A stretch of 64,000 bases of DNA. Source: Yuukianura sp. NJ FZ-2021 (Eukaryota). This document shows positions 23,242 through 61,396 of the stretch, one piece after another. Positions within the stretch are counted from its first letter, which is position 1. Each line of letters begins with the position of its first letter. The translations under genes and the position numbers were made by a program. Under the pieces are notes generated by a model, which made no database searches, was not told the DNA's origin, and saw only the letters and a list, made by a program, of their open reading frames with translations. The stretch is from positions 558,001-622,000 of the forward strand of contig JAJCTO010000010.1 in NCBI GenBank assembly GCA_046563655.1, in the 5' to 3' direction.

Positions 23242-23676
23242 ATGCAGCGTCATACTGTTGATGACTTTTACCAAGTATTTCAACCACAATCTGGAGGCGG
23301 TGATATTTCTGGAAGATTACTTTTTTACAACCCAAACTTTGTACGCCAGAAAGGGGCTGGCTTTGGATCATTCTTGTTGAATATTGGAAGAAAGTTGATC
23401 CCAATAGCTAAAAAGTATATTTTACCACACGCTACAACTGCACTGAAAAATGTTGCTTATGACGTTTTAAACAATAATAGTAATTTAGTTGATAGCCTAA
23501 AATCCAATGTCAAACAAGCCATAAAAGGAGTTGGAAACGACATTTTGAACCAGTCTGGAAGTGGAGGTGGAAGTGTAATAAAGTCAAGAAAACGAAAAAT
23601 ACATAAAAATTCTTTTTCGTGTTTTCAGAGAAAAAAAGCTAAAAAGTCAATATCTCATAACATCTTCAACGTCTAA
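23242..23676 (+). CDS. Polinton PZ core protein
   Basis: Repeated QxGxG motifs (QSGGG, QKGAG, QSGSG), amphipathic FGSFLLNIGRKLIP segment, basic tail ending NIF. Lies between the minor and major capsid genes. Confidence 0.8.
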   Translation: MQRHTVDDFYQVFQPQSGGGDISGRLLFYNPNFVRQKGAGFGSFLLNIGRKLIPIAKKYILPHATTALKNVAYDVLNNNSNLVDSLKSNVKQAIKGVGNDILNQSGSGGGSVIKSRKRKIHKNSFSCFQRKKAKKSISHNIFNV

Positions 23677-25926
23677 ACGATCTCGAGAAAACCCCAGAGT
23701 TGACTTTTTACGCAGTGAAACTGATTTGTTCACAGAACCAGGATACGATATCTCAATACAACATTCAACAAGTGTTGAGTACTTTCCCTTAAATAATATA
23801 AGTGATAAAACGGCGCCACTCACATTTTTTATTCAAGGAAATGACCTACAATACCTCGACTTTGCAGAATCCAAACTTTACATCCGCTGTAAACTTACAA
23901 AAGAAAATGGAACAGATTTGGAAAAAGTAACAGACGCTGCTGTGCTTACATACGCACCAATTAACAACTTTTTACATTCAATGTTTGACAAAGTTACGAT
24001 ACACCAAGGTGGGTAAACAAACAAAAGCTACAGAAGGTTATCCAGCACCTCGGGTTTTTCAATTTTGTGCAAAAATTTTCAAAAATGAAACCGGTTCATC
24101 TTGACTCCATTTCTATTGCAATTTTAGTCTTTTTTTTTCTTTTTTTTTTTTATTCAAAAATTTTTATAAAAAAAAAATCATACAATCCCATCAAATAATT
24201 TATTATGTACTTAACTAATGAGAGGAAACGGGTTTCCACTCAACAAAAACTGATTAGCTTTCCCTGTATTCCTGAATCTTCCCTTGCGGAGTCCTTGAAT
24301 TACACGCTTGTAGCGTATCCGTGATGCGCAAATCCTGCTCGAATGTGCTTGACGCAGGACTTTGACTTCAGCCTTGAGGTTTCTCCATTTGTCACGATAA
24401 GAGGAACACTTCTTCTTGTCACTGCGCGTCGTAGGTTGGGCTAAACCAAATTGGGATACACTATTAGGATCAATTGAAAATTAAAATTTACAAAATTCTT
24501 ACCCTCAAGTCGTCAAGCATTGGAAAGTGAGATGAGCAGATTCGGGAAGAGTCACTGAACTTTGTCGAACAAATACTCTCCCATTCAGGTCGAATTGCTT
24601 GTGCTTTCGGCACTCTGAAGAACTTAAGTTTTGTAAACCCAGACTGCACTTTGTATGTATTTTTACGACAATCTGGCATGGAGCAACACAGCACCATCGT
24701 TAAATCTACCTGATACTCGAATTCTTAATTCAAATCAAGTCGAGCAGTTGGAAAAAATTGGAAGAAAATGCGTAAACCGAATCGGAGGAAAATTGGAGGA
24801 AAGGCGTAAACAAAATTGGAGGAAAATTGGAGGAAAAAATTGTTTTCTTCCAAAAACTTGAAACAGGGAGGTACTGGACAACCTCTTGTAGCAAATACAA
24901 TCGGTTGCTATAGCAACCTTGCGATACACTTGAATGAAATGGAAATAACAAGCAAATGTAGCTACTATCCTCAGAGAGCCTACATTGAAAGCTTCTTGGG
25001 ATATAACAAAAATTATAAAAAATCGATAGGAGAAGCTGCAATGCTAACAAAGACGGAATCAGAATTGAACACAACTGATTTTTGAAGGATTTTTGAAACG
25101 CAAAGACTTGGTTGATGGTAGCAAAGTTTTTGAAGTTGCAGGAAAATTACATACAGAACTTTTTAGCCAACCACGATTTCTGATTCCTGGAATTGACGTG
25201 AGAATTCAACTACATAAATCAAGCGATGCATTTTGTTTACAATGCGTAGGCTCAGCCAAGCAAAACATAAAGTTTGCAATGTTGGAGGCCAAAATGATTG
25301 TCCGAAAACATCAATCATTACCATCCATTCAGCTTGCGCATTTAAAACATATGGAAAACGGTCATCCGGTAGTATATCCAAATCGATTTGTGGATATAAA
25401 GTCTTATACTCTTCCGAGTGGTACTTTGTTTAATACGAATGAAAACATTCTGACTGGTCAAATCCCAAATCGTCTGATTTTGGGGTTAGTATCGAGTACT
25501 TCATTGCATGGGACCTGCGAAACAAACCCTTTGGCATTTAGTCATTTTGACGTTAGTCAAATTAATGTAAAAGTCAATGGAGAAAATATCGCGGAACATG
25601 TTGTTGAGATGGATTCAGCAGAAAACAGGAATGTGTTAGCCTACTTGTCACTATTTGAAAATTTAGGCCTAACAAATTGTGATGCTGGAGTTGACATAAA
25701 GTTAGACGAGTACAAAAACGGCAAAGCTTTACATGTTTTTAATTTAAGAAATATAAAAGATACGTTTTGCCTTCCAAAATTTGGAAACGTAGCAATAACG
25801 ATAAGATTTAAGGCAGCGACAACTGAATCAATCACCGCAATTGTTTATGCAGAGTACGAGTCAACACTATACATTAATCGAGAAAAACAAATTTATCTTA
25901 AAGATTATGCAAAGGAATCAATATGA
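23669..25926 (+). pseudogene. Polinton major capsid protein (PY), interrupted by a P-element derivative and frameshifted at ~25082
   Basis: ETDLF, YLDFAESKL, APINNFLHSMF | YYPQRAYIE, FSQPRFLIPG, GQIPNRLILG, NPLAFSHF and YAEYE. The apparent start codon reads ACG at 23669. Confidence 0.9.
24005..24921 (-). mobile_element. Non-autonomous P-element/THAP-family DNA transposon (917 bp)
   Basis: Ends CAAGGT / ACCTTG. 8-bp TSD CGATACAC (23997-24004, 24922-24929). Subterminal inverted repeats at ~24028-24051 and ~24868-24892. THAP zinc finger ORF 24488-24697 (CCSMPDC...FFRVP...W...RICSSHF). Confidence 0.88.
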
Positions 25927-26449
25927 TGAATACGGTAGAATTGATGTATTGTTTAACAAGAATCATGCAACGGCAAAAAGGACAATACGATGTGTTACCA
26001 TGTGACAAATTAAAACATTACAAAATTCAGAGTTATCCGTTGTTATTAATTATCAATAGTGATGAGAGTCACCTGGAAGGAAAACACTGGGTAGGGGTAT
26101 ACGTCAAACGTTTTGGATCCGAAGTCGAATTCTTTTGTAGTTATGGAAGAAGCATATATCAATATTCACACTATTTTATCGATAATTTGCAATTCGTCTA
26201 AAGTCAAACATTCTGGAAAGCCAGCAGCGAGTACAAAGTGCATACACAACCACTTGCGGAAACCATGTGCTATTTTTCTTGCACAAAAGACTTGTGGGAT
26301 GTCCAAGAAATACATTTTATCGTGTATTTAGTAATGATTATGTTAAAAATGATAAAATAGTATTGAAGTTTGTAAATAAGATATTTAGAAAACAATTTAT
26401 TCCATCTCATAAAAACACTCAATGTTGTCAATGTGAAAATAGCAAATAA
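25923..26449 (+). pseudogene. Polinton adenain-like cysteine protease, frameshifted
   Basis: IINSD...GKHWV, EFFCSYG and a downstream TTCG segment. Overlaps the MCP stop. Confidence 0.85.
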
Positions 26450-27355: not shown

Positions 27356-27445
27356 TCTGATGAAGGTGCAAAAGCAAAATGCAAAGAATACACAATGTAT
27401 TAAACATAAATACATTTGTTGATAATACGTTAGTAGGTATTTGGT

Positions 27446-28579
27446 ATGGAGCAGGAAATTTTGAATTCCTATACTGATACAAAAAATGTTGGATCATTTA
27501 CTGGTGCTGATAATTTTTACAAAACAAATAAATTTGCTGGAAAAAAAAAGATTGCAAACATACTGCTAGGAGCGAAAGGCTATAGGCTCCACCATCCTGC
27601 AAAAAAATTTGTGCGTAAAATTGTTTATTGTCCAGCATTGTACGACCAAGTAGGAGTAGATTTAATTGATATACAAAAATACAAAAAGTCAAACTATGGA
27701 AAACGTTAGATTTTAGTGGTGGTGGACTGCTTTAGTAAAATGGCATTTATGGAAGCATTAAAAGATAAAAAATGTGAAACAGTACGTTTGGCAATGGAAA
27801 ACATACTTGATCGTAACAAAATAAAATTTTCATACTGTCAAAGTGATGGTGGGAGTGAATTTGTAGGAAAAGTTATGAAAAAATGGTACCTAGATAATAA
27901 TATTACACATTTTGTAACTTCCAGTCCTATTAAAGTTAGCTATGTTGAGCGATTCATTCGTACCATATTTTCTCAAATATCACGCTATATGACGCAGAAT
28001 AACACAAAACGTTTTGTACACAAACTAAGAGATTTTGAGCATTCATACCAAAATTCTTATCATCGTTCCATTGGTACAACACCGGCTTCAGTGACCAAAA
28101 ATAATGAGTGTGAAATTTGGGAAAAATTGTATGGAAAAGTACGGAAAATTAAAAAATCAAAAATCTTCAAAGTAGGAAACAAAGTAAATATTAAAATTAC
28201 AAAAAAAAATTTAGCAAAGGTTATTCTCCCAATTTTGAAGATAAGGTATATAATACAGTGAGCGCCACCTAAAACCATATACCCCTATTTTGTTTCCGTA
28301 GAAACAAGTTGAAAATTTGGTAAACATGGGGGGAAAGGTAACTCAAAATGTGAATTTTTAGTTAACTCTTATGATGGAATTTTTTGCAACTCGCACAGTT
28401 TCAATGGTTTTCCCTCCACCGTTGCGAAATTAAACAATTTGGGGTGCATGGTTTTAGCTGGCGCTCACTGTATAACCAGAGTCATACAAACAAGTCCTGT
28501 GACGTATGAAGTTTCAGATGAAAAGAATAGTATATTAAGTAGAAAATTTTATCAACAAGAGTTAGTTTTAATTGAATAA
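27446..28579 (+). pseudogene. Polinton integrase B, with an in-frame TAG at 27707, a frameshift and a MITE insertion
   Basis: GSFTG, VDLIDI, VVDCFSK, QSDGGSEF, VERFIRTI, NSYHRSIG and FYQQEL. Confidence 0.9.
28256..28470. mobile_element. Tc1/mariner-type MITE (215 bp)
   Basis: TIRs CAGTGAGCGCCACCTAAAACCAT / ATGGTTTTAGCTGGCGCTCACTG, flanked by TA on both sides. Confidence 0.9.
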
Positions 28580-30484: not shown

Positions 30485-30776
30485 AAAATTGAATAAAATG
30501 AGAGTCATGGGTGGAAATGTAGTGTAGTTTTGTTTTTGACTATGGAGTGTCCAGACTTTGATTTTCGTCTTTTAACACCATTTTGTATGACAATTTCTGG
30601 TCCATCTCAATATGAAAAGTCTACAATTTATATCTACATCGTCAATACAAGCCGTAGATGACGATGGCGAGGACAATGAGGAAAGTGAAGGCTCAGAGAG
30701 CTATTCGGAGGCTGACGAAGATGACAACGAGATGCAATCGGACTCGTCGGCCTGAAAATATAAGATGTGCACTTTG

Positions 30777-32811: not shown

Positions 32812-34480
32812 AGTATACTACACACTCACATTACCTCGGTTTGAGATTCTTCAAAATATTAGCAAGCTTGTTCGCCAAGTGAATATCAATGGAAAATGAG
32901 ATACCAATTCAACAACTCCTGATTATACCAATCGGAACATCACAACAATGTCTTCTTTTCAAAAAAAAAATGACACGAAATTTTAAGGATTTAAATTTAG
33001 AACAGCTTTGAGTCAAGGCATTGCTTTTCTCTACGTACGCACAAAATCAGGGAATAGCCAGCTTGAGTTTATTCATTTTCAACTATTTAAATTTGTATTG
33101 TGTTACAAAAAACTCACTAGCATGTGACAAATTGTCTCGCCAGGATTTCTCCATGAACGGGTTATCAAACATCATCGAAGCGAACCATGACGGAATCGGC
33201 AGATCGATATTTCGACGAATTTGGATACAAGTAGAATCGGTGTGAACTAGGGATGGCACGAATTGGTCGCAGTTCCCACCAGCGCGCAAAATAGTTTCGT
33301 TGATAAGTTGTGAAGTACACAATCCCTTCGTAGAGACTGAATGCGTCCGTATTGCGCAACTCGGCGTCGACGTAGTCAGCGATGGCGCCGCACCGAAATC
33401 TTCCGAGCAGAGTAAAGAATCGTTCAACAAACATGCCTCTGCAAATTCCGGAGAATTCTCGCCCTCTTGATACGAAGATTGAGTGTCACAAAATGCTGGA
33501 GTTACAGAACTCCTGAACGTCGAGGTGCCAGTGGTAGAAAACTGCGTCGAGGGTACATTGTTTGAATTCATTTAAATTAGCTTGGCTGACTGAGCCTGGT
33601 CGATCAATGGCAAAAAGAGCACGGGCGTAACAGTCGAGTCCACGTGGGCCTCCGGGGCTTAAGGCTTCCTCTCGTAGGTACACGAGAAGGTCTGCTACTT
33701 CAGTTTCGGCCAAGAGCGGTTGATGCCTACTCATACCAACTGGACTGAACTGTGACGGTTAGGCTAGGACTTACACCTTATTATTATTATCCCAGGTCCG
33801 TGCGCCTAATTCACTAAGCTACAACTGGTAGGTAACGACTTTTATAGCCACCCCACTGTACGTAACCACGGTATTTATTCATTATTTATTATTCATCATT
33901 ATTCGGTTAGGTTCCTCAAACAAACGTTCGTTGTACCTCCATATTGTTCATAAATCCTTCCATTTCGCTCCGAATGATAACTTCCCTCCCAGATTCGCAG
34001 GTTATATGCATATTATATTATGCATATTATATGCATATTATATTACGAATTTAATTCGTAATATAAACGATTAGTCACAACGGATCTGGGCTCCTACTCA
34101 CCGTTTGCATTCAGTTCTTGAGGGCGCTTGTGTACATCATACAACATCATTCACATTTCAAGCCTTCCATGATTCAAAAAACTTTCAATTAAAAAAGCTT
34201 TCAATTCAAAAAGAAATTTCCTTAGATACTGTTAAAATGAACAAAGCGAAAACAATCCTGGAAACCGAACTTGAGTTTTCAGAGCTATCCTGACAAACCT
34301 GCTGCTCATGGCACTACACACTCGTAATATGTTCTTAATCTTCCCCGCAATTCCGTCGTAATATCTTCCTACTCTCCTCCTCCACATTGTTCCCACTCAT
34401 GACTCGTTCTTAACCCCCTACTCTCATCCAACGGTTGTCGGGACTTGGTGGGTGGTGGAGGTAGGTGGTGGGTGGTCGTC

Positions 34481-35584
34481 AGCTAATGGCAGTGGTAAGG
34501 AAATTCCCAAAAATCCAAGATGGCCGCCGCGTCTGCGCAAAAACGTTTTTTATGACGTCATCACCCCCCCCCCCCCTTCCGCACCCCCCATACCCCCCCC
34601 ACTATATATCCCTTCCCCCTATATCCACCACCCCCCACGTGACCCCCAACTCACGTGCCCCGCCTCCCCCAAACCACAAAATTGAAATTTTAAAAAAAAA
34701 GAATCAATTTTTAAAAAAAAAATCAATTTTGAAAAAAATCATTTTTTGAAAAAAAATTTTTTCCTGAAATTTAGAAATTGGAAAATGTTTTGAAACTTGG
34801 AAATTGAAATCAAAACTCAAGATAAATTTCCCCAAATTACCCCAACTTGAAATGTCAAGGTCACGCCAATTTTTTCAAGGTCACGCCAAATTTTTCAAGG
34901 TCACGCGCGCCCTTTGCATTGGCATATGAATTTGCGTCAGGTCATGCGCGCCCATTTGCAATTTCATGTAACTTGTTTACAACATTTCAATTTTTTTTTC
35001 AAGGTCAAGCGAGCATTTTTAAATTGAAATGTCCCGGGAGCCCTTTTCTGGGATCCCGGGACCAAGAAGATCAAGTATGGTACATGGGCGGTACATTCGG
35101 CTGGTCAGAGGATTAGTGGGGTGCCACTCGGCCACTGCCAAAACAAACCGCAAACCACTTCCGGCTAGCCTGCCAAAAGAAACCGCAAACCACTTCCGGT
35201 CAACTTGCCCGTGCACATGCACGTACAATTCCATTTGAATTTTCACTTTGCAAAACAACATCAAGGTCAAAGGTCAAACCGAGTTCAGCTAGCTCGGGGG
35301 CGTGACTAGTCGCCCGTCTCTTGAGCCAATCAGCTTTGAGCATTTCAAAAGTGGGCGTGGCTCGAGGAAATGGAGCAATTTGATTGGTCGAGACTTGCCG
35401 CAACACTGGGGGCGCGATAGCTCTGGCAAATGAACGTTTACCATTTCAATCGGGGGCGTGGCCTCGGAAAATGGAGACATTTGATTGGTCGACAAAACTT
35501 GCCATTGCCACACATTGGGCCCGCCCTCAAGCCATAGTGTTGTCATTTCCTGCTTAAACTCAGACAAGTCGCCCGGGCGGACTG
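34481..35584 (+). repeat. Left TIR of mini-Polinton 2
   Basis: Near-identical reverse complement of 39477-40533. Mirror ORFs 35289-35567 and 39494-39772 give identical translations. Confidence 0.93.
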
Positions 35585-35688
35585 TTTATACACAAAATGG
35601 TCATGCTTATTTGTCGGTGGTTACATTGCGACTGTCCCGTCTTCACCCCTTGCCACGCGACCCCTGCATTTTTTGCAGTTTTTTACGG

Positions 35689-35743
35689 TGACGTCATCGG
35701 CTGTGCCTATATAAGGCCGTGACGTTGCCACAAGCGGCTCAGT
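35689..35743 (+). promoter_or_regulatory. Core promoter of the mini-Polinton 2 minor capsid gene
   Basis: CRE TGACGTCA at ~35689, TATATAAG at ~35708 and TCAGT initiator at ~35739. Confidence 0.6.
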
Positions 35744-35835
35744 GTTTCACTAGCTTCTGCGTCGGTAACATTACCTTCTCCTACAAAAGTTTAAGTGAAA
35801 GTGTTAATTTGTTATTGTTCAACTCGCCGTCAGCA

Positions 35836-36906
35836 ATGGCCGTCGTTGTTAAACCCAGTTCGCGATACATTATCGTGGATAGTGCTTTAAACAGCAGCTT
35901 TTACCCAGAAAATAAACCAAACGAGTTTCGTGCCAATTTGGATCCTGTGCTTCATGGCTGGAAGCAACCACTGGAGGTTGCCATTTCTGGAATGCACTAC
36001 ACTCCAGCACCCAAAACCCAACGTAACATTTTTGGCCACAGTGAGGGTGACAATGTCATAAACGTAACCGAGCACTTGGAGGTGACGGTTACAATCTCAA
36101 AAATGGATGGAATAATAAAGTTTTTCGGTCATGTCTACAAGGAATTGAAAAAATTTGACCGAAAAATTGTCATATCATACACAAACAAGGTCTTTTCACT
36201 TACCAACGACGAAAAGGACCACGTGGTTACCATGACGGCCGAGTATGCTTGAGCCTTTGGCTTTGATACCAACACGTTCCCAAATGGAGTGACGCATGGC
36301 CATGAATATTCCGAAGCTGTTTTTGACGCAATTGATCCAACAATTAACATGACGCTCCACATTTTCCAAGACAAGGTCAACTTGGCAACCGTGGTAGAAC
36401 CAAAAGAAAAGACGGTGGAAGGCCTGATTCAGGCCATGAACGCCGCCTTGGCTCCATTTCAAATTACATTCAAGTACTCTGAGGAAGAGGCTGTACTCAA
36501 ATACACCCGAGAATCTACACCCAATTACATTACGACCCTCTCGCCACTTTTGGACAAAATATTTGGACTGCCGATGGGAGCCGCATTCAAGGGATTTAGC
36601 CAAACGAATCCAGCCAAAGCCGAAATTGACCTTGGGGTGACGTCAAAACATCTCCTTGTCGTGTGCGATCTTGCGGAATATACCCAGTTTGGAGACAAGG
36701 TGCTGCCGTTGATTGGAATATTCCCACAAGGCGATCAGGATGGCAAACCAGTCGACTTGGAAGTCAATGTACCGCGTTGATTTGCGGTAAAAGGACAGTC
36801 GATGATCAATTCCATTTACGTTCAACTTTTGGACGAAAACCTGGCACCAATTCCTGAAGCACACAGCGCAACCCAACTTGTTCTTCACGTCAGAAAATCC
36901 ACCTAA
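35836..36906 (+). pseudogene. Minor capsid (penton/PX-like) protein of mini-Polinton 2, with two in-frame TGA codons (36250, 36778)
   Basis: YIIVDS...FYPENKPNEFRANL...LEVAISGMHY. C-terminal VVCDLAEYTQFGDKVLPLI...SIYVQLLDEN...LVLHVR matches the termini of 21792-23240. Confidence 0.8.
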
Positions 36907-37092
36907 ATTGTCCAAAAACCAGTTATTAACGGCCACAAAAGACAAAATCTGTTCAGTTGACGTCTGACTTGCGACCAAGCAACACGAAAACAGTGCAAAA
37001 CATTGTAAAATTTACACCAAAACCCTTAAAAACGTCGTCAGTATCAACTTTGTGCTCGTTGAAGCAACATCTAGTGCATTTTTTGTGTAAAA

Positions 37093-37500
37093 ATGGAAGT
37101 TGACGAACCAGGAAACTCTGATTTTAGCAACAATAGTGACAGTTTGACGCCAGAAAATGGCGAAAACAAGTGCGACAATGCAAGTTTAGCCACAAAAACG
37201 ATATCATCGCCCGCTATTGTTCAAAAAATGTCCGCGGAATTGCCCAAAAAGAAGGTCAGAAAGCGCTCACGCCCCAAAAAAGTACCAAATTTGAAGAAAA
37301 ATTTACCCAAAAATGGGTCGAGCAGTACAGATTCAGACGAAAATCTTTGCAACAATTGCAGAAAAATGCAAATTTCTAAAGACAATAGCAGAAAACCAAA
37401 AAAATCTGCCAAAAGTGGGCGAAAAAGGCGTAAAATTGTTGCAAAATTGCAAAATTTGGCGCAAAAGGCTATAAAAGGGAGCCTATTTCACAACAATTAG
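37093..37500 (+). CDS. Lys/Arg-rich basic protein (candidate core protein)
   Basis: KKKVRKRSRPKK and KSGRKRRK. Occupies the PZ position between the minor and major capsid genes. Confidence 0.45.
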   Translation: MEVDEPGNSDFSNNSDSLTPENGENKCDNASLATKTISSPAIVQKMSAELPKKKVRKRSRPKKVPNLKKNLPKNGSSSTDSDENLCNNCRKMQISKDNSRKPKKSAKSGRKRRKIVAKLQNLAQKAIKGSLFHNN

Positions 37501-37505
37501 TCAGT
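37470..37505 (+). promoter_or_regulatory. TATA plus initiator upstream of the mini-Polinton 2 MCP
   Basis: TATAAAA at 37470 and TCAGT at 37501. Confidence 0.6.
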
Positions 37506-37645
37506 CTGCGTCTGAATTTCGACGAGTAAACACGTGTCTAGTGCGCAGTGCTACCATAAAATTTACGCGTTAAACCTTGGAAATAGTGCTCAGTCGTCAT
37601 TTGGCAACCGTCGGAGCAACATCTCGTGCGTGTTTTTGTGCTAAA

Positions 37646-38969
37646 ATGGAGGTTAATGTGCCAGTGAATTCGAAATTGGTCACCACAAGTGCCAAATTTG
37701 ACCTATTTTCAAAGCCAACCACGGATGTGTCGTTCATTTTGGGCAATTATCTAGTAGTGAAACCATTTTCACCATCGACAGACCCTAATCCAATCTACTT
37801 TCGAGTGGAACAGCCGGCACATGGTTATATATGGTTACTTGGACCTGTCGGATTCTTTCCTAAAACTAGTGTTTTCAATTAAAAAAAGTGATGGAACTCC
37901 ACTCACCGATGCAGACAAAATTGCGCCTGAAAATTTATTTTTTCATGCGTTCATTGACGACTTCAAAGTTTTGGTCAACAATTGCCAAGTAGTTGCTCAA
38001 GGATACCGAGCATACTAGTATGAAGCCTGGATGCTCACTCAACTCTTTAACGGCATTGGAACCAAATGCAGCACATTGTCAAAAGTGGGTTATTATGCCG
38101 GAGATGTCATGGACACCTACGACGACACAAACCCGAGTTACAAGGCGCGATTAAACTTGGCAAAAAATAGTCAAACATTTGAAATGATTGGGCGCCCGTT
38201 TGTCGGCCTATTTACGACCAAAAAGTTATTCCCGCACAACACTCAATTCTATTTTGAAATTAAAAAGAGCGATGCATCCTTTTGCTTGCGAGGACCGGCC
38301 ACTACCACCAAATACAAAATTACAGTCGAATCGGCCGAGTATTATATTCGCCAAGTGAATCCCAGCGAAAAAATAGTGACTCAGATCCGGCAAGGGTTTG
38401 CAAAAAACAAAGTGGCCAACTATTCATACGATCAGGCCCACATGCGTTTAGAATATGTGTCGAAAAATCTCAGTTCGGTTGACTTAACAAATGCCTACCA
38501 CAGTACTATGCACCCAAAACTTCTTTTAGTTGGCATTTTGGAACTAGAAGTTTACGAAGGGAAAAAAGTTGAAAAGTCACCATTCAACTTTAAACCCCAC
38601 GGTGTTAGCCGTCTGTTGCTAAAATTTGAGCAAAAGCCCTTAGTCTATCAAGAAATGATTTTCAAAGACAAAAATTACATGCTTGCCTATCACAATTTGT
38701 GCAAGTTGGTTTCTCGTCAGACTGAAGGAAATGACATTTCCTACGACAAGTTTGTAAACGGAAATGCAATCTTTGCATTTGACGTCCAGGATTTGTGGAC
38801 TGACGGATACAATGCGACCAGATCTGGACAATACGGATTGGAAATTGATTTTGAAACCCCGACCACAAAGGATTTGGTGGTTCTCATCGTCGGAATCGAA
38901 GACGAAACTTTACAAATTGATGGAAATAGAATTACTGGACTTGCATCCAACAAAAAAATATTCTTTTAA
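37646..38969 (+). pseudogene. Major capsid protein of mini-Polinton 2 (frameshift ~37830, TAG at 38016)
   Basis: KFDLFS, YLDLSDSF, APENLFFHAF, FEMIGRP, SPFNFKPHG, GNDISYDKF and GNAIFAFD. Colinear end to end with 4770-6938. Confidence 0.9.
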
Positions 38970-39476
38970 AAATAACTTTATTTTTAATCTTTATTAGCCC
39001 TGTCTCAACTCTTTTTTGTTGTATACTTTTCAAAATTTGAAAAATAAACTAATCTCCTCATTGAAAAAAAAACATGATGTCTTTTATAAATAAAAGTAGA
39101 AAAAAATGAAAAAAAAAACAGAAATTAAAAAAACGAAAAAAAAAAACGAAAAAAAGGACAAAAAAGAAACCAAAAACTGCATTCATGTTTTTGGTTTTCC
39201 ATCAAGTTCATCAAGGTGTTGGCACAAATTGCCGGTTATGTTCTATACGGTTATTCAAAGTCAGGTTCATGCCGTACGTTTTTCTGATAAGACGTTTCCG
39301 TAATTTATTTCAACATAGTTGTGTAAGCGTAAGCTTGCGGGCATACCAGTGACAAACGCCAAGCCTACGTATATATTGTTCCGTAAATGCTTGAGCTACA
39401 TAAAAATTATTTGGAGGCAGATTGAATCGAACTCACGGCCCCTACCATAAGATGTAATCGAAATGGACGCTCTGAC

Positions 39477-40533
39477 CAGTCCGCCCGGGCGACTTGTCTG
39501 AGTTTAAGCAGGAAATGACAACACTATGGCTTGAGGGCGGGCCCAATGTGTGGCAATGGCAAGTTTTGTCGACCAATCAAATGTCTCCATTTTCCGAGGC
39601 CACGCCCCCGATTGAAATGGTAAACGTTCATTTGCCAGAGCTATCGCGCCCCCAGTGTTGCGGCAAGTCTCGACCAATCAAATTGCTCCATTTCCTCGAG
39701 CCACGCCCACTTTTGAAATGCTCAAAGCTGATTGGCTCAAGAGACGGGCGACTAGTCACGCCCCCGAGCTAGCTGAACTCGGTTTGACCTTTGACCTTGA
39801 TGTTGTTTTGCAAAGTGAAAATTCAAATGGAATTGTACGTGCATGTGCACGGGCAAGTTGACCGGAAGTGGTTTGCGGTTTCTTTTGGCAGGCTAGCCGG
39901 AAGTGGTTTGCGGTTTGTTTTGGCAGTGGCCGAGTGGCACCCCACTAATCCTCTGACCAGCCGAATGTACCGCCCATGTACCATACTTGATCTTCTTGGT
40001 CCCGGGATCCCAGAAAAGGGCTCCCGGGACATTTCAATTTAAAAATGCTCGCTTGACCTTGAAAAAAATTGAAATGTTGTAAACAAGTTACATGAAATTG
40101 CAAATGGGGGCGCATGACCTGACGCAAATTCATATGCCAATGCAAAGGGCGCGCGTGACCTTGAAAAATTTGGCGTGACCTTGAAAAAATTGGCGTGACC
40201 TTGACATTTCAAGTTGGGGTAATTTGGGGAAATTTACCTTGAGTTTTGATTTCAATTTCCAAGTTTCAATACATTTTCCAATTTCTAAATTTCAGGAAAA
40301 AAATTTTTTTCAAAATTGATTTTTTTTTCAAAAATTGATTTTTTTTTCAAAAAATGATTTTTTAACAAAGAATTTCAATTTTGTGGTTTGGGGGAGGGGG
40401 GGCACGTGAGTTGGGGGTCACGTGGGGGGGGGGGGTGCGGAAGTGGGGGGGGTGACGTCATGTGCAAAACGTTTTACGCAGACGCGGCGGCCATCTTGGA
40501 TTTTTGGGAATTTCCTTACCACTGCCATTAGCT
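39477..40533 (-). repeat. Right TIR of mini-Polinton 2
   Basis: Inverted copy of 34481-35584. Confidence 0.93.
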
Positions 40534-40746
40534 GTCGTCGTCGTGGTAGTGGTGGTGGCGGTGGGTGGGAGGTGGTGGTTCTGTTTGTGGGAAATTATTC
40601 AGCACACGACTGTAGGCAACCGACAGAAATTTGTACAATTTATTCAGTTGCAAACAGAAAAACTTTTTTTTTTAATGATGTAACTTTGTATATGCAATAA
40701 AAAATCCATTCCTCGTTTCACAATTTTTCACCGTCGAAAAAAAAAT

Positions 40747-45518: not shown

Positions 45519-46290
45519 TGTAACGCCGGATTTCGAGCCACCTCCAAATCAATCAATTGATCTGGAGTTGGGCCGAATTCGGACGCTTAATTAAGTTAAG
45601 ACAAAACTAGTTAAAACCAGTTAAGAGACATGTCGAGTATGCAGATTGATAATTAAGGGAAGTTTTGAAATTGAGACAGGAGGTCTCAAGACTTATGATA
45701 AGAAAAAGGTGATTTGACAAGTCCTTTGGACTTGTCATGTAAAACAACTTGCTCAGCAAGTTTGACATCTGTCAAACATGGGGTGTCCACTCGCAAGAGA
45801 GTTGATTCTCCCATTCAAAATCCCTGTTTATCAATTTGCATAGGATCGTAACTTTGTGCAATCTTGGACATTAATGACAAAGCAGGATCATAGATCCTGG
45901 TCATTAACGTCCAACTTTGAACTCAGGTCGCTAAGCGTCCCTCAGTTGAAGGACAAGCTGGGTCAAGAGTAAGGTTATAAATATAAGTAACAACTTGTTA
46001 GCGTTAAGTCATTTTTGAATTAGCTTTTGGGGAAGCATCTCTCTCTCTCTCTCTCAGGTCAGTTTGACTAGATTATAAAGTCGCTCTTTAGAATAAGTCT
46101 TTTGGGGAACAATAAACACTCTTCCTGGGAATTCTCTCCGCCGTTCGTCAATTCTTCATCTTCGAAGCTTGCATATCTGCCACCGTCACTTCCGCTGATT
46201 CTGCTGTTCAGGGTTCTACTGGTGTCAACCGTAGCTGACCAAGGTAAGGGAATCTTCCCTTCTCATACATGATTTAATAAGGGTAGCTAG
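45519..46290 (+). repeat. 5' LTR (minimum extent; 3' end not resolvable)
   Basis: Matches 63238-64000 with scattered substitutions and a CT-repeat indel. TATAAATA at ~45975, AATAAA at ~46110. Confidence 0.92.
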
Positions 46291-48380
46291 ACGAGCATAT
46301 TGAGACACCTAGGTGATGTGGGTCGGGTGGGACCGGCCCCACCTAAAGAGTAGAAGGTAGGGTAGGGAGTGGGACTGAAGTACGGTCCACTCAGGTCATT
46401 GAGCTAACTAGAATCCAGGGACCCAGAGGGGTCAAGTTTTCAGGTCAATTAGGGTGGGACGGGTGTTAAACCCGCTATGCTGTTGCAATTAGCTGTTTGG
46501 TTGTTTTCAGAGGACAATCAAGGGATAGTATTCGTGTTAGGTTAACGTAACAATGGAGTTCAAAAATCACCCTGTTTCAATGGAGGTTCTACTGAGATCC
46601 TTCTGTAAAGTCCCTAGATTCACTTAAGGTCAAGCGAGGTCAACTAGAATAACGTTTAACATAACGTCTAGAGAAAGCAGTTCTTAGAATTTGAAACTCG
46701 CTTTTGGCGGGAAAATTTGAATCTGAAAATTTTTACTATTTGCAAGGGTGGGCCTATAGCCCACAGCCTAAATGGCAAGTCCTCTTTCACATTTCTGAAG
46801 AACTTTTGAAGAATGACTTTTGGCGCGAAAATTTAAATTTTGAAAATTTAAAGTAAGATGTATAGATGAACATCAAGTCTTATCTTCTTGCAGTTCAGTA
46901 GTCAGTTCTAAGCAAAATTTTTAAAGTTTCATGTGTTACATCTAAAGTTTCTCCCATTTTATAATTCTGTTTTTGCGAAAAGCCGAAAATAGTGCAAATT
47001 TTAGCAAACTCATATTTCATAAAATTCTCAGCTGATTTGAATTCATTTCAACGAAGTACAATTGCATAACGTCTGATTAATCCCTGAAGAAGTCATAATA
47101 AGTTAATCAACTACTATACAAGTTTCATTGCATAAAATTGTGAACAGAATTTCGGCGCGAACACTCAAAATTTAAACTAGTAGAATTCACGCATGGACTT
47201 ACATTTCAATTTTATTCAAATGACAAATTCTTGAATTTCGAATTAAGTTTCAATTGAAAATTAAAATTTATCTTTTCATTTAGTGTCTTTTCAAACATAG
47301 ACAGGATTAACGTAAATTCGCATTTAGAAAAAGGCTTTTTGACGTTATGACCTCTCTTGACCTCAACAGTTTTTGGTATAGGAGTAACTATACCCCTACA
47401 ATGTAATCATCCACTGATCTCGCACAAGTTTTTAAGACTGAATTTGAAATAATGACAGAAACCCGTTTAACTTTCTTCTGTTTCTTTCTTCTCAAAGCTT
47501 TCACTTCATAATTAAAGAGTAGAGTGGAAGGGGGGAACCCTTCCCACAGTTAGTCGACACTTAAGTAGAGTGAAGGGAGGAGCCTTCGCTCAATTAGCAA
47601 AGATTTAGAAATGACTTCGTCACGAGGGAGGATAGACCTCGTGACTATGTAGTACTGTTTAAGGACAATAGCTTTAGGTCTGAGTCCTCGTAAGGACTTG
47701 ATGCTTCCCGCCTTTAGGGACAAGTCGGGGTCAAGAGGTAGACCCTTAGCAACTGGTGTATGTTTGACCGGGGTCATGGTATTTGGCGAGAATGCCCCAT
47801 GACTGCTCTTAGTCGAAGGATAATCCGAACGCTTGCGGACGCTGGAGTCGCGACCAGCCGAAACTTGTTATTAGGTAGGACATAAGCTAGAATCTAGACA
47901 ACAGGATACCGCGCTAGGTCCGGAGGTGGCGAAGGTTCCGCCTGAGACCGATGGGCTTAGCATAGTTAAAATCAGGGAAAAGGTCAAGTCTCTGCAGCTG
48001 TTCCTTAGAGCACTAGTGATGCGAAGGGGCGGGGTACCACAGCCCCTCTGAAGAATGGCTTTAGAAATTTTCATAGAGTTGTCGTCAACTCAAGGTCAGA
48101 TCCCAGTCCATGGAGCATCATGCCCGGACCTAGCCAGTCCGATAGGCCATCTATCTCACTGATGATGTCACACAAGTTGACAAATACACCCCATGCTCAA
48201 GGAAGGGAGCATTATTGTAATTTACCTCGAGATTTTGGACTGGGAGGGGACTGAACCTACTGCAGGAGAGCTTGTCAGGGTGTTAGGGACTAGCATTAAG
48301 TAGGCCCTACCTTCATGAAATGAAGGAGGAGTATTAACTCCATACACAACCTTCCAGGAAGAGGAAAACAGCAGAGAAGG

Positions 48381-49760
48381 ATGTCTCTCTACGTTTTGCT
48401 GTTAATTACATTGACGCTGATGGCGGAAGGATCCGTGCTCACGAGAGAGGACGATGGAGCCATCCGATGCTGGGAGGAAGACCCACTTGATAGTCTTAGG
48501 ACAAAGCGTCATGTGTTCAATACGAGGATGTGGAAAACGTTCCAACTAGGATGGACTTTAGAGGACGTACCCTCGGAGATCCGAAAAGCCGACGTCCTTA
48601 CTGATATTAAGCTAGCGTTCCAGAGATGGAATGAGATTTCAAATTTCACATTTATGAATAAGCCAGGTGACTCAACTGCAGAGATCCAAATTAAGTTTGC
48701 TAAGTTTGATCATAACGACTCAAAACCATTTGACGCTGAGCGTGGTATCCTAGGCCATGCCTTCTATCACAGTGAAGGGATAGGAGGAGATGTGCATTTA
48801 GATGCATCTGAAAAATGGGCTACAGGTCACAATGCCTCTGGCATTAACTTATACACCGTAATGTTACACGAAGTAGGTCATGCCCTGGGGCTTGTCCATA
48901 CTTCGGAGAATAGTTCCATCATGTTCCCATGGTATAAGATAAGGGACCCCCAACTAAACTTGAGCATAGTAGACAAACAAGCTCTTGAGCGACTCTACGA
49001 GCAGGCTCACTTGATCCTACAAATCGATGCCGAAAAGAAGGAAGTCCAACAGCAGCTGTACCGAGCCGTGAGTTCAAGACCCATAGAACACGCTTATCAT
49101 TTAAGTAGCATCTACTTCCTATTTCAAGGATTTGGACATTACCAAGTAGAAAGAACTGGGAAACTTAGTTATCCTAGATTTGTTATCAATCATCAATATT
49201 TTCAATATTTTCCTGAAAATATCCGAATCGAGAGGATCTTCCCATTCGATGGACATCTCTACATTTTTGCCAATGGAAAATACTGGAAATACTTCTCCAA
49301 CACCATCTTAGACAAAGGGTACCCAGCTGACACAAGGGAACTAGGAATTTCCACTCCAATTACTGGAGTCATAACGCAGAGACGTACATTGTACTTACAA
49401 GTAAATGGCACATGGCTAGGTTACTACCACTCTCAGGGGAAACTGTTTCCTCAAGATAAAGTTCATAACCCTGTACAGTTGAGTGAGGTGCATGCACCTG
49501 TTGTAAGCATAAATGAGCATCACCTGGGCTTTTATTCTTTAGAACGGAGTCTTATCATGGAATACGATTGGAATTTCCGACTCCACAGATACTATAAGCT
49601 AGCTAAGTTTCTCGGAATTGACTGTGAACCTAGTTCAGGCGATCTGACTGCTGAGGTAGCAGAGATCGGAGCACTTACATGGGCATTTTTCGGTGTCATG
49701 ATAATTTTCTCACTGATAGCAGTGACAATTATCTTTAATTCTATCCATTGTGATGAATAA
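48381..49760 (+). CDS. Membrane-type matrix metalloproteinase (M10A) with hemopexin-like domain, intronless, inside the retroelement
   Basis: Signal peptide; RC...D remnant plus RTKR furin site; HNDSKPFDAERGILGHAF; GGDVHLDASEKW; zinc motif HEVGHALGLVH; Met-turn SIMFPWY; hemopexin-like DGHLYIFANGKYWKY..KGYP; C-terminal transmembrane helix. Confidence 0.93.
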   Translation: MSLYVLLLITLTLMAEGSVLTREDDGAIRCWEEDPLDSLRTKRHVFNTRMWKTFQLGWTLEDVPSEIRKADVLTDIKLAFQRWNEISNFTFMNKPGDSTAEIQIKFAKFDHNDSKPFDAERGILGHAFYHSEGIGGDVHLDASEKWATGHNASGINLYTVMLHEVGHALGLVHTSENSSIMFPWYKIRDPQLNLSIVDKQALERLYEQAHLILQIDAEKKEVQQQLYRAVSSRPIEHAYHLSSIYFLFQGFGHYQVERTGKLSYPRFVINHQYFQYFPENIRIERIFPFDGHLYIFANGKYWKYFSNTILDKGYPADTRELGISTPITGVITQRRTLYLQVNGTWLGYYHSQGKLFPQDKVHNPVQLSEVHAPVVSINEHHLGFYSLERSLIMEYDWNFRLHRYYKLAKFLGIDCEPSSGDLTAEVAEIGALTWAFFGVMIIFSLIAVTIIFNSIHCDE

Positions 49761-49850
49761 AATCCAAGAATTTATTTTCTGGTTTAGGATCTATACCTAA
49801 AGTTGTATGTATATAATTTGCTTAAGGTATTACGCCCGTTTCAAAAGGGC

Positions 49851-50252
49851 ATGAGTACTGGTGATTCCGGATCGGGGAAAAAGAGGGATCGAGGAACACC
49901 AGAATTTTCATTCACTGCATTGGATTCGGTGTTAAAGGACAATCGGTCCAAGTCGAAGTCGCCTAAGAATCGAGAGGAGGAAATTGCTTCAGGCACGCAA
50001 GCAGGGTCCAGCACCAGTCCAACGAATCCAGAGATCAGGGCCATACCGGAGGTAGTGGTTGTCCAACCTCCATCCAACCCAACGATCATAGTGAAGGACG
50101 AGCGTGTGGCAAGGAAAAGCCAGCACACAGCTAAGGCCGCGAAGGCTGACAGGTCAGATCGTCCTATTCTTATTCCAAATCCTACTCAGGAAAGAGGTAG
50201 TCTCCGTAATGACTTAAGTTTGATTTATCCGGCACTATCCAAGGCGACATGA
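49851..50252 (+). CDS. ORF0 upstream of gag (disordered, S/P/K-rich); its stop overlaps the gag ATG (ATGA)
   Basis: ATG at 49851, with an ATGA overlap at 50249-50252. Confidence 0.45.
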   Translation: MSTGDSGSGKKRDRGTPEFSFTALDSVLKDNRSKSKSPKNREEEIASGTQAGSSTSPTNPEIRAIPEVVVVQPPSNPTIIVKDERVARKSQHTAKAAKADRSDRPILIPNPTQERGSLRNDLSLIYPALSKAT

Positions 50253-51368
50253 GTGATCCAAATAATACTGGTGCAGGGGCTCCGGGTGGGAGTACCCCTG
50301 GTCCTGTGGCATTAGTGGCACCAGGTGGAACCGGGAACGTGTTTGTTTCGGTGTGGAACCCACCTGGTGATCCCATCTTCGAAGGAAAACGGGGATCCCA
50401 AGCCACGAATTTCATGCAAACTTTCAAAGCAGTTGCTGCTACGCAACACTGGGATGACACTGCGAAGGTCACCCATTTTCCTCTCTATCTCACCAAGTAC
50501 GCTAAGACTTGGTGGCTGAACTACTGTACAGACTGTAAAAGGGATCCAGCCAACATTGATGACGATGGCGAAGTGTTGCCTTTGTCGTGGCCTAAAATTG
50601 AGGCAGCTTTTAAGTTGGACTTCAAGTCCAGGCTTACCGAAGACGCCCTTGAGCATAAACTTGCTCAAATGCGGCGCGGAAAGAATGGTCCGTATCGAGG
50701 AGTACTGTAGTAACATTATGCGGTTGTGCGATCAGTTAGACAAAAGTCTGGGAACCGTCATGAAGGACGAAAAACGGGTTAAATACTTATTGAAGGGTCT
50801 TGGGCAGGAGGAAAGTCATGAGGTCTTTCTCCGACAGCCCAAGACTCCTAAGGATGTTATTGATTTCTTGATCCAAAAGGAGGACTACGAATTTATGATG
50901 GACAGAAAGAAAGATTCTAGTAGCCAGAAAAGGATGGTAGCTAGGTTCAACGCTATGGGGATCGAGGAAGGTCAAGAAGATTCCAACACCAGCGGAAAGG
51001 ACTCACGTCCTCGCGGGGGTTACCGCGGTAGCTGGAACAGGGGAAATAACCGTGGATACGGTAAAGCCGGACATGGATACTCCCGTGGTGGAGGGGGGTC
51101 CAAGAGGGACGATTCCAACGGTAACCGGGGTAGTGGTTCTCGGAATACACAAGGTTCATCCCGAGGACGTTGGAACAACCGCGGTGGTCGTGGATCAGGG
51201 CGACCCCGTGAAGCCGATAGAAAAACTCATCTTGTTGACGGTACTCCCATAGAATGCTGGACATGTGGAGAGAATCACCGCCGAGTTGACTGTCCAAAAC
51301 ACAACAAACGACCATCGGCAAACGCTACTCCGCCTACTGTTCCGGAAAACTCCACTGCACGTCAGTAG
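50249..51368 (+). pseudogene. gag (capsid plus CCHC nucleocapsid), one frameshift at ~50690
   Basis: PIFEG, W..AKV..FPLYL..AKTWW, SWPKIEAAF, IEEYC, VKYLLKGL, an RG-rich region and CWTCGENHRRVDC. Confidence 0.88.
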
Positions 51369-51400
51369 GGGGAGCTGACGTCATTCTTTCATGTCCCCCT
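51344..51400 (+). other. -1 ribosomal frameshift signal (gag-pol)
   Basis: G_GAA_AAC slippery site in the gag frame, 8-nt spacer, stem ACGTCAG/CTGACGT with loop AGGGGGA complementary to TCCCCCT (51394-51400). The -1 frame is open into pol. Confidence 0.8.
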
Positions 51401-54400
51401 TTTCACCAAAACGAAACATTAAATGAACCAACTATCAATTCCATGCAACTCGATGTTAATGATTCCAAACTCCGAGGAAATTTCATTACCCCAATTTTTA
51501 TTAACGAATCTGGCACACTTTTTCGAAAAACTTGTTTAATTGACAACGGAGCTTCTGTTAGCATCGTTACAAAACATAACGTTGAAACATTTGACAAATT
51601 AAGCCAACCTTTCAAAATAAAATTAGCCAATGACAGCCATGTCAAAATTTTAGGCACTTCCAGAATTAGAGTTCAGTTCACCCGCACCAAGGATGAATTC
51701 TTTGATTGGGATTTCTTTGTCATAGATAAAAGTTTTGTGGATTTCATTATTGGATTAGATTTTCAAGCGGCCAATTTAATGCAGTACCGGCTGCTTAATC
51801 CCAACGGTTTAGCAGAATTCCAATTTCAGGGAATGTGTCACCCTAAACGTCTTAACGTTTTCCCTTCCACAGGAACTAAAACAATTCTGAATTCAGTCAA
51901 GGTGGAAGGAAGTAATTTGTGCAAAAAGAATCATCCATCCACACCTAAAGTCTTGACAGTAGAAGAGGTAGTTCTTCCACCGTTCGCCACCACTCAGGTA
52001 AAAGTATCTCCTGTCAATATGATTAGTGGAACTTTAGCATTTGAACCTAATGGAACTGGACTTGACAAATTGGGCATTTGCATTCCTCATTTAGCCCATA
52101 TTCCAGAAGGGGAATTCCTTATTCCAGTCGATAATCCAAGACCAGTTCCTGTGACACTTTACAGAGGTGTAAATGTCGGATGGATTAGCCGAGTTATAGT
52201 TAGAGATTCGCAACCGGAAGAAGAAATTCGAGCAGCTCGTTTTAAATCAACTCGGGAAAATATAGACTCCATCGATATCAATCCAGAATTAGATCCTGGG
52301 CAGAGACAACAATTGAGAGAACTCATCTTAGAGTACGGAGATGTCTTTGCTTTCAATTTGGACCAGCTAGGGAAAGCTAAGGATGTTAGTTTCCGGATTG
52401 ACACTGGAGATGCACTTCCTGTAAGTTGCCCTCCATACAAGAAATCCCCAGTTGAAAAGAAAATTATAGAAAAGGAAGTCGAAACACTGTTAAATGCGGG
52501 CATTATTCGGGAGAGTCAATCACGTTGGTCCGCAGGAGTCTCTTTAGTAAGAAAACAAAATAGTGACAAGTTTAGAATGTGCGTTGATTGGAGACGCCTC
52601 AAGTGAGCTCTTAGCATCATTCAACGGAGCCAAATATTTTAGCGTAATGGATTTGATGTCAGGTTACTTTCAATTACCCATCCATCCTGACGACGTGGAG
52701 AAAACCAGCTTTGTAACACACACAGGAGCGTATGAATATCTCTTTGTAGGTTTCGGCCTAACAAACGCCCCAGCAGCATTTTCTGCCTTTCTCAAAACAG
52801 TACTGGGTAATCTGCTGCATTCCATTGCCACTGCATACCTAGACGATGTATGTTGTTACAGTAAAGACTTTCCGAGTCATTTGAGCAATCTGAGAAAAGT
52901 TTTTGAACAATTTCGTACATATAATTTGACTCTCCAACCACCAAAATGTCATTTCGGACAGACTAAAATTGAACTCCTAGGTCACATCATTTCAAGGGAA
53001 GGGGTTTCAGTTAATCCAAATAAAGTTAGTGCCATTTCCAAGATGCCTCCTCCTACCAACATCGGGGAGATCCGAACTTTCTTAGGAATGGCGGGATACT
53101 ATAGGAGATTCATTTTGAATTACAGTCTTATAGCAGCTCCACTGACTTCTTTGACTTAGAAAAATGCAGCTTTCAAATGGGATTTAGAACAACAACAAGC
53201 ATTTGACACGCTACGAGAAAAACTAACTTCGGCTCCAATCCTCACATTCTTCAACGAGAATGCAGACTTAGAACTCCATACTGATGCTTCTAACAAGGGT
53301 ATAGGAGCAGTACTCAATCAGCGGGACCCAGATGGCGTCCTGCGAGTAGTAGTTTACGCCAGTCGAACGTATCGTGGCGCCGAGGAACGCTACAACACTA
53401 GCGAGCAGGAAGCTCTAGCTGTTGTTTGGGGTCTGGACAAGTTTAGGGAATTTATAGGCTTCAAGGGCATTACTATTGTCGTAGATCATCATGCACTATG
53501 CTACTTGAAAACATGTAAAAATCTTAGAAACAGTCGTCTTGCTCGTTGGGCCTTGCGACTTCAGGATGTTGTTTATGAAATTAAACACATCAATGGTAAA
53601 AGCCATGTCCAGGCAGACTGTTTAAGCAGATTTCCTATATCTGAACCAGAAGGTGAAAAGAAATTCATCGATGATTTTCCCACTACATGGTATAGTATGC
53701 AGTTAGTAACTCCAGTAGAATATACGGAGAATCTGGCTCAGGAGCAAATGAAAGACAGGAAATTAGAGACTATCATTCAATCTCTCCATGCAGGAAAAAC
53801 TAAATACTGTACATCTTTTGACTATTCCGAGGATCTTTTAAAATTTATTTGCAAACAGACGAAACAATATTTGCCAGTCATACCAGCTCACTTGGTAGAC
53901 TGTGCCATTCCACGTTTCCATGATGATACATTGGCTGGACACCTTGGTATCGCCAGGACTATCGCCAGAATTCGACAAAGTATTTTCTTTTTCAAAATGG
54001 AAAAACGTGTAACGTCATACATTAGACATTGTCCGACGTGTCAACTAAGAAAGTCTAAAAATGTGAAGCCTTACGGCTTCTTGACGCCGATTGACATCAG
54101 CTCTCTTGCTCTGTTTGACAAGTGCAGTATTGATGTCATAGGCCCTCTGAACAGAACCAAGCGAGGGAATCGCTATATTGTTGTCCTAGTTGAATTCGTA
54201 TCGAGATACATTTTTGCTAAAGCAATACCCGAAAATACCACCAAAGAGATGATCTCATTTCTGACTGAGATAATTCAAACCCACGGAGTTTTCAAAACTC
54301 TTCTTTCTGACAATGCTAGTACTTTTCAATCCTCATTCTTTAAAGAGTTCAACAAATTGATTGGGATTACCAATCTGTACTCTACTCCGTATCACAGCAG

Positions 54401-55262: not shown

Positions 55263-55385
55263 GACGCACCACTAATTAACTACTCATATAGGATTATGGA
55301 GGCGGGAAATTAGGTAGTTAAGGTAGTTAAGTGGTAGGACAGCTTCAGAATATTTAGGAACTTTTCATTCCCCTAGAAAAGAAAA

Positions 55386-58200: not shown

Positions 58201-58339
58201 GCATACAAGCAGCGCATCTATTTTGAAGATTAGTAGATAGTACTCAGGAGTAGCAGGCTAGAATAGTAAAATAAATAGAACTTTGTAAAACAATAGACTA
58301 AAAACACGTCATTTTCAGAATTCAGAATTCTAAAAACTC

Positions 58340-59143: not shown

Positions 59144-59166
59144 TTTCATTTCATTTTCCTTTCAAA

Positions 59167-61357: not shown

Positions 61358-61396
61358 AAACAAAGGGAGAAGCGATTTCAGTAAATAACATCGAGA

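Follow-up and report, generated by a model that had tools for sequence, protein, structure and literature searches.

Polintons are regarded as standing between viruses and transposons, and capsid-shedding, pure-transposon forms of them have been described. The question raised by the locus analysed here is whether the reverse also occurs, i.e. whether a Polinton can shed its enzymes, keep its capsid genes and persist as a lineage in that form. A stretch of 64,000 nucleotides from Yuukianura sp. NJ FZ-2021 (GenBank assembly GCA_046563655.1, contig JAJCTO010000010.1, positions 558,001 to 622,000 of the forward strand; referred to as the window, with all coordinates counted from its first nucleotide) contains a mini-Polinton, designated element 2, together with a second one, element 1, and the gene cluster of a larger, resident Polinton. 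An annotation made from the sequence alone (first-pass annotation) had proposed that elements 1 and 2 represent a long-lived capsid-only lineage and not two chance deletions. Element 2 is a real, well-delimited, dead, structural-gene-only Polinton derivative, and we consider it just probable that it is a helper-dependent derivative from a persistent lineage.

The limits of element 2 were defined by its ends, its terminal inverted repeats (TIRs) and a repeat in its flanks. The termini are AGCTAATGG at 34481 and CCATTAGCT at 40533. An alignment of the two arms spans 1107 columns, of which 1027 match, 27 are substitutions and 53 contain gaps. No difference occurs within the inner 592 nt, and the outer, homopolymer-rich 290 columns hold all but 3 of the substitutions and 2 of the gap columns. 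An inverted repeat of 9 nt had been quoted initially, but the actual arms measure about 1.1 kb and thus represent, with their AG termini, the long TIRs of a Polinton. The 6-bp target-site duplication (TSD) of Polintons is present as GTCGTC on both sides, as had been claimed, though with some ambiguity: six matching bases mean less inside a GTC/GGT microsatellite such as this target, and the duplication is weaker evidence than the GATATG of element 1. Both flanks consist of the same GGT/GTC repeat type, which is expected of a simple insertion. A blind scan of the window for 6-bp duplications beside 16-nt terminal inverted repeats returned only two non-trivial elements, element 2 and element 1. 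Their terminal sequences are distinct and both begin with AGnnAATG, in agreement with the first-pass annotation; the pattern shared by them, AGnnAATG...TGG..GG.AATTCC, is matched in the window by the four termini of elements 1 and 2 only.

The interior of element 2 (35585–39476, 3,892 nt) is filled by three plus-strand genes, assigned to penton, basic protein and major capsid protein (MCP). The MCP reading is based on end-to-end alignment with intact metagenome proteins of 437–444 aa at 42–45% identity, and a profile of its relatives matched 6,597 cluster representatives at E ≤ 0.001. A hidden Markov model (HMM) of the family, for which 131 of 152 proteins were used and 21 were dropped as outside 400–470 aa, recognised the pieces of the element 2 MCP (E 1.3e-75), the resident Polinton MCP (E 2.8e-82) and also the element 1 pieces. 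The family was identified as Polinton/adintovirus MCP because of its gene context on contig L004 and in the resident Polinton. On L004 the order is penton, basic protein, MCP and Peptidase_C5 (adenain-like protease; E 4.8e-4, below the Pfam cut-off), and in the resident Polinton the family member lies between penton-like and protease-like genes. The genes of element 2 follow this canonical penton–basic–MCP order, and an arrangement of penton, small gene and MCP is given for Polintons in PMC4028283 (this and five further papers, PMC5499653, PMC3014272, PMC8097293, PMC8502044 and PMC11161782, served as literature in excerpt).

The first of the three genes is predicted to encode a divergent Polinton penton. 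The 128 residues at its C-terminus can be aligned with the open reading frame (ORF) at the penton position of L004 (E 4e-6), which in turn matches the resident Polinton penton (E 3e-17), and its C-terminus is 40% identical to a fragment from metagenome locus L002. Profile–profile comparison by hhalign with the resident and L004 pentons gave E 1.8e-5 at a probability of 78%, over the C-terminal 85 columns only. For the N-terminal two thirds no relative was detected by a word-indexed search, and an unbroken piece of the protein returned only unnamed or unrelated clusters from the ESM Atlas. The basic protein shares the C-terminal motif K-x-(I/L)-K-G-S-x-F with the corresponding ORFs of L001, a metagenome contig described below, and L002. 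None of the three proteins (0/3) received a family above cut-off from Pfam or PHROGs, the MCP profile, run against PDB sequences, retrieved a single row at chance level and no real match, and scans of viral contig and genome contig collections yielded no relative. ARAGORN detected no tRNA, and Rfam returned only one miRNA row far below threshold.

All three genes named initially are therefore present, but penton and MCP are pseudogenes, since they carry four disabling lesions. The penton frame contains in-frame TGA codons at 36250–36252 and 36778–36780, with homology running on past the second; the MCP shows a frame change at about 37832–37836 and an in-frame TAG at 38016–38018. The damage to the MCP is light, as the conserved positions of the family are kept apart from the lesions. 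As read from the assembly, the element 2 copy is dead, a point that the first-pass annotation had missed.

No enzyme gene accompanies the structural genes. Pfam rve integrase matches in the window occur only at 12169–12744, 27710–28258 and 53160–55259, hence none within element 2, and no protein-primed polymerase (pPolB) was found in its interior, the pPolB of the window being located at 1081–11659. Neither a packaging ATPase nor an adenain-like protease was matched in element 2; the L004 protease finds its matches in the window at 25926–26162 only, and the non-coding tail that leads from the MCP stop to the right TIR contains no trace of a protease or other Polinton gene. Lacking polymerase, integrase, ATPase and protease, element 2 is non-autonomous. 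Polintons are defined by pPolB and rve integrase according to the excerpt of PMC5499653; element 2 falls outside this definition, yet it clearly derives from the Polinton family.

The relationships of the MCPs carry the argument beyond the single copy. Identity between the element 2 and element 1 MCPs is 54.4%, versus 20.6% between element 2 and the resident MCP and 23.1% between element 1 and the resident MCP, so that the much closer relationship of the two mini elements holds as claimed; the peptide motifs quoted in its favour are all present in both. In a FastTree phylogeny of 136 tips, elements 1 and 2 (E1 and E2) are sisters (SH-like 1.0) within a clade of seven tips (E1, E2, L001 and the clustered proteins P0001–P0004), and the resident MCP is placed far outside. 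The clade has a FastTree support of 1.0, an SH-aLRT of 100 and a stem of 0.58–0.62 substitutions per site. The sister pair, which the first-pass annotation had suggested, also received an SH-aLRT of 99.6 in an IQ-TREE analysis of 24 tips. P0001–P0005 and P0023 represent the clade in a collection of 5.8 billion clustered proteins; P0005 and P0023 were, like L002, assigned by score or identity, and P0008 (38% identity) lies nearby. P0005, an intact clade MCP, has 541 aa instead of about 437, owing to a mid-protein insertion of about 100 residues that is acidic and internally repeated.

Synonymous differences between the MCP genes, estimated by the Nei–Gojobori method for three DNA pairs, are saturated (proportion of synonymous differences pS 0.79–0.81), with nonsynonymous proportions pN of 0.27–0.35; the pair E1 and E2 has pS 0.81 and pN 0.27. 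From saturated pS together with low pN it follows that these MCPs split long ago under purifying selection, as working genes and not as copies decaying in this genome.

Element 1 was examined as the nearest relative. It sits inside the pPolB gene of a resident Polinton, with flanks at 1081–2100 and 8589–11659, and once the element and a single TSD copy are taken out, stretches of 340 and 596 codons form one continuous frame; element 1 is thus a mini-Polinton nested in the polymerase gene of a Polinton. It contains a broken basic-like region and an MCP, and no penton is detectable in it. The MCP is split by an insertion of 858 bp (5127–5984) with an 8-bp TSD, GGGCATAC, and terminal inverted repeats CAGAGGTGGTAG/TAGAGGTGGTAG, presumably a miniature inverted-repeat transposable element of hAT type, and two further frame changes follow downstream. 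The idea that both mini elements target polymerase genes was dropped, as the flanks of element 2 have no similarity to the pPolB ORF.

A third context is provided by L001, a metagenome contig of 3,944 bp with an intact basic ORF of 132 aa and an intact clade MCP of 436 aa, so that intact capsid genes, found in neither element 1 nor element 2, do exist in the clade. Its inverted repeats (3–454 and 3365–3795, 83% identical) reach the contig ends, and no penton or enzyme gene lies between them. L001 is an independent third case of a TIR-bounded, enzyme-less structural-gene element; inverted repeats of this kind were found in one of six metagenome loci. Tandem sub-repeats occur inside and beside the inverted repeats of L001 (574–690, 843–958 and 3502–3944) and lack GATTGGTCGA, a motif of the element 1 and 2 TIRs. 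A fourth, partial context is L002, which shows a penton end, a basic gene and an MCP start in that order. The same architecture had been claimed for both mini elements; this applies to basic protein and MCP, but not to the penton, which is not recognisable in element 1 or L001.

Taken together, element 2, element 1 and their metagenomic relatives may form a lineage that persists as small structural-gene-only elements. Because element 1 and L001 lack a penton, the constant core would consist of basic protein and MCP, with the penton being optional. On this view the elements would not be independent accidents of deletion but parasites of full-length Polintons: a full helper Polinton that recognises the termini of element 2 would supply protein-primed polymerase and rve integrase in trans, and replication from the termini and the 6-bp staggered integration would be carried out by these helper proteins. 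Decayed full Polintons are present in the same window. In all clade members with both flanks readable (E1, E2 and L001, 3/3), inverted repeats surround structural genes only, and none of the structural genes of element 2 is cut short by a deletion edge, its promoter-like pairs also being retained.

The timing of decay bears on how such copies move. A clock based on the inner TIR (3 substitutions in 815 aligned sites) predicts 0.2 stops since insertion versus 3 seen (P(≥3) = 0.001), and element 1 offers a parallel, with the interrupted pPolB ORF still open over 340 + 596 codons and its own MCP broken (P about 0.03, hand calculation). Element 2 may accordingly be viewed as a copy that was perhaps already defective at its last move, and this timing in elements 1 and 2 would mean that movement needed no capsid genes of their own in cis.

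Several points weigh against a persistent lineage. With both mini-element copies in the window dead, nothing here shows a working capsid-only element. A defect before insertion is not secure either, because the clock based on the whole TIR gives P(≥3 stops) = 0.16, and gene conversion between the arms would break the clock. The combination of saturated dS and low dN would arise just as well through selection in full-length parents. The penton varies, being present in E2 and L002 and missing from E1 and L001, and continuing random deletion would give the same pattern. Only four DNA contexts are available, a tiny sample, and one of the four is partial. P0001–P0005 all lie on contigs of at most 6 kb, which weighs little since metagenome contigs are generally short, and the clade member P0023 is broken off by the end of its contig, a 10.9-kb sequence that is possibly a full-length Polinton. 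As no full-Polinton terminus of the type of elements 1 and 2 occurs within the window, no helper has been identified. The long-lived capsid-only lineage of the first-pass annotation is plausible but not established: the distinct clade, the shared end and sub-repeat motifs and L001 speak for it, while penton content varies and the copies are dead.

The main rival is recurrent deletion, which we regard as a lesser but realistic possibility. E1, E2 and L001 would each be a recent internal-deletion product of a different, unsampled full-length Polinton with a clade MCP; there would be no persistent lineage, and the capsid genes would be passive leftovers, moved because the ends were still recognised. 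The two dead copies, with element 2 possibly defective at insertion, the different penton content of sister elements and the location of P0023 are in line with this, dN/dS does not separate the two explanations, and degradation is common, affecting 96% of vertebrate Maverick loci in the excerpt of PMC8097293. Random breakpoints, however, would be expected to truncate genes or to retain other segments at least sometimes, whereas the three readable contexts keep the genes whole and have lost every enzyme, even the protease, which in canonical elements comes directly after the MCP. Moreover, both genes of L001 are intact, and the clade, which has a long stem with full support, contains no member seen with enzymes.

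A stronger form of the persistent-lineage explanation, in which intact members build their own, probably smaller, particles as satellite viruses, appears improbable. The particles would consist of their own MCP, with or without their own penton, and the helper would provide replication, packaging, maturation and integration. Whole capsid genes kept with promoter-like pairs of their own, the intact MCP and basic genes of L001, the distinct and long-branched MCP clade, and an element size of about one third of that of intact vertebrate Mavericks, whose size looks constrained (PMC8097293, excerpt), would fit such a role. Against it stand the dead copies of the window and the absence of ATPase and protease; being without a penton, E1 and L001 could not close a shell alone.

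An assembly artefact or host-domesticated capsid genes are very unlikely: assembly collapse is in principle a possible source of the identity between the arms over their inner 592 nt, and the lesions of element 2 are known from the assembly alone, but the ends are clean, GGT-rich flanks and a flank duplication are present on both sides, sequencing runs from two studies contain parts of the element 2 interior, the TSD of element 1 is unambiguous and its removal restores the host reading frame, and the pseudogenes speak against domestication. Of the words sampled, a fraction of 0.22 was present in a run under a second organism label (X4); no RNA run was among the sequencing runs listed as containing element 2 words.

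It is conceivable, if rather doubtful, that the clade marks an undescribed satellite group of animal Polintons/adintoviruses, with linear TIR genomes of 4–6 kb that encode a basic DNA-binding protein, their own MCP and sometimes a penton, use the polymerase, integrase, ATPase and protease of a helper, and perhaps form smaller shells. An enzyme-shedding, capsid-keeping element with its own MCP clade would, if true, add a new layer of parasitism to Polintons and open a practical route to the questions of whether there are Polinton particles and how their size is determined; in the satellite form it would be a eukaryotic counterpart of the capsid-forming phage satellites. If the mini elements are deletion debris, the finding is ordinary.

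Comparison with known systems places element 2 as follows. Polinton termini are said to obey an AG rule formulated by Kapitonov and Jurka in 2006, and non-autonomous Polintons have reportedly been catalogued by the same authors and in Repbase; like element 2, the latter would combine Polinton ends and a TSD with the absence of enzymes, and are presumed to be mobilised in trans. With autonomous Polintons/Mavericks (polintoviruses, animal adintoviruses), element 2 shares the 6-bp TSD, the long TIRs starting with AG, and homologous penton and MCP genes that follow each other in matching order, separated by a small gene. It differs in the absence of pPolB, rve integrase, ATPase and protease, in size (6 kb versus about 13–25 kb) and in its MCP, which belongs to a separate clade with about 21–25% identity to the canonical MCPs used here. 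For vertebrate Mavericks, the excerpt of PMC8097293 gives an AGT end motif, TIRs of 46–1,447 bp, 6-bp TSDs and, for intact copies, lengths of 12.7–24.6 kb. Polintons that lost the capsid module, with enzymes kept and MCP, protease and ATPase lost together, are described in the excerpt of PMC4028283; they exemplify modular loss within one element family, and element 2 is their mirror image, keeping capsid genes and losing enzymes. Virophages and Polinton-like viruses, as far as covered by the excerpts, resemble element 2 in the morphogenetic module of MCP plus penton, and some integrate, but they have their own replication protein, ATPase and protease and measure 14–40 kb, and element 2 has none of these genes. 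Literature searches and the excerpts of the six papers yielded no description of a structural-gene-only Polinton or of a dedicated MCP clade, with Repbase and supplements outside this scope.

Capsid-forming phage satellites (capsid-forming phage-inducible chromosomal islands, cf-PICIs, and P4-like satellites) are bacterial, helper-dependent elements that carry capsid genes, as has been demonstrated experimentally. The resemblance to element 2 would be a functional analogy, namely a small integrated element with capsid genes that relies on a helper for the rest; the proteins are unrelated, and helper dependence and particle formation are only conjectured for element 2.

Putative regulatory motifs were found in the TIRs and ahead of the genes of element 2. 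The first-pass annotation had stated that the capsid genes are preceded by TATA/TCAGT promoters. Only two copies of the strict TATA...TCAGT pair exist in the window. They lie in element 2, one upstream of the penton and one upstream of the MCP, and this placement is suggestive, but the count does not exceed chance (2 versus an average of 1.6 in shuffled sequences). A looser TATA-like...TCAGT pair at 37006–37043 lies ahead of the basic ORF. The left TIR holds one TGACGTCA, five TCAAGGTCA and two 67-nt units that end in GATTGGTCGA, and the TIRs of elements 1 and 2 both contain CCAAT-type sub-repeat arrays ending in this last motif, which, allowing one mismatch, occurs 18 times in the window versus 3.9 expected, with 16 of the copies in the TIRs of the two elements. 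For TCAAGGTCA, 12 copies were counted versus 0.68 expected, 10 of them in the TIRs of element 2, five per arm (34855–35269 and 39792–40204); we take this motif to be the extended half-site recognised by nuclear receptors that bind as monomers (e.g. FTZ-F1, SF-1 and ERR), which would suggest that the TIRs of element 2 act as regulated enhancers. The palindrome TGACGTCA, presumably CRE/ATF-like, occurs nine times versus 0.8 expected, 8/9 of them in Polinton-derived sequence (34553, 35689, 36638 and 40453; also 10085, 11257, 20819 and 26888), including a copy at the outer end of either TIR of element 2 and a further one, at 35689, 19 nt before the penton TATA box. The positions of all features are compiled in Table 1.

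Table 1 Features of element 2 and of related Polinton sequences in the window
Feature	Position	Strand	Remarks
Element 2 (mini-Polinton)	34481–40533		6,053 bp, discrete; ends, inverted repeats, flank repeat
Putative TSD, left copy GTCGTC	34475–34480	none	GGT/GTC-rich tract; consistent with a TSD, ambiguous
Left TIR	34481–35584	+	1104 nt; terminus AGCTAATGGCAGTGG
Promoter-like pair, TATATAAG then TCAGT 31 nt later	35708–35743	+	about 95 nt before penton ATG
Penton (minor capsid, vertex) pseudogene, predicted	35836–36906	+	356 codons; C-terminus matches L004, L002 and resident pentons
Basic protein	37093–37500	+	135 aa, lysine/arginine-rich; intact ORF
Promoter-like pair, TATAAAAG...TCAGT	37470–37505	+	about 140 nt before MCP ATG; overlaps 3' end of basic ORF
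MCP pseudogene, Polinton/adintovirus MCP family	37646–38969	+	family HMM and alignment
A-rich non-coding tail	38970–39476	+	contains AATAAA; MCP stop to right TIR
Right TIR	39477–40533	-	1057 nt
Putative TSD, right copy GTCGTC	40534–40539	none	
Element 1	2101–8588		TSD GATATG, unambiguous; TIRs about 1.4 kb
ATPase-like piece	591–722	-	
ATPase-like piece	12745–12987	+	
ATPase-like piece	30554–30628	+	
rve integrase	12169–12744	-	35–57% identity to the other integrase between aligned segments
rve integrase	27437–28258	+	see preceding row
Resident Polinton, penton	22209–23237		
Resident Polinton, basic protein	23248–23670		
Resident Polinton, MCP pieces	23582 to 25923		
Resident Polinton, protease	25926–26198		

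The window as a whole resembles animal, probably arthropod, DNA and is packed with mobile elements; its first part (1–33000) holds what is left of at least two further Polintons. The ends of the resident Polinton could not be placed in the window, as neither an inverted repeat nor a TSD pair turned up for them. Its MCP is interrupted around 24014–24809, beside a THAP-domain ORF on the minus strand (24491–24724). The ORF that follows the joined pPolB codons (10445–11659) contains a YTDTDS motif, and its nearest Atlas clusters carry DNA_pol_B_2 and are mostly from arthropods (score 0.98). A non-LTR retrotransposon with endonuclease and reverse transcriptase ORFs (16003–19503, minus strand) is inserted among the Polinton remains, and an RPA-like OB-fold ORF is located at 15160–15693. 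Downstream of element 2, a retroelement of about 18 kb with long terminal repeats (LTRs) spans 45519–64000 and encodes protease, RNase H and integrase ORFs; its LTR pieces (45519–46290 and 63238–64000) are 96% identical over 772 nt. Between these LTRs lies an unusual passenger, an ORF with matrixin and hemopexin domains (48324–49757).

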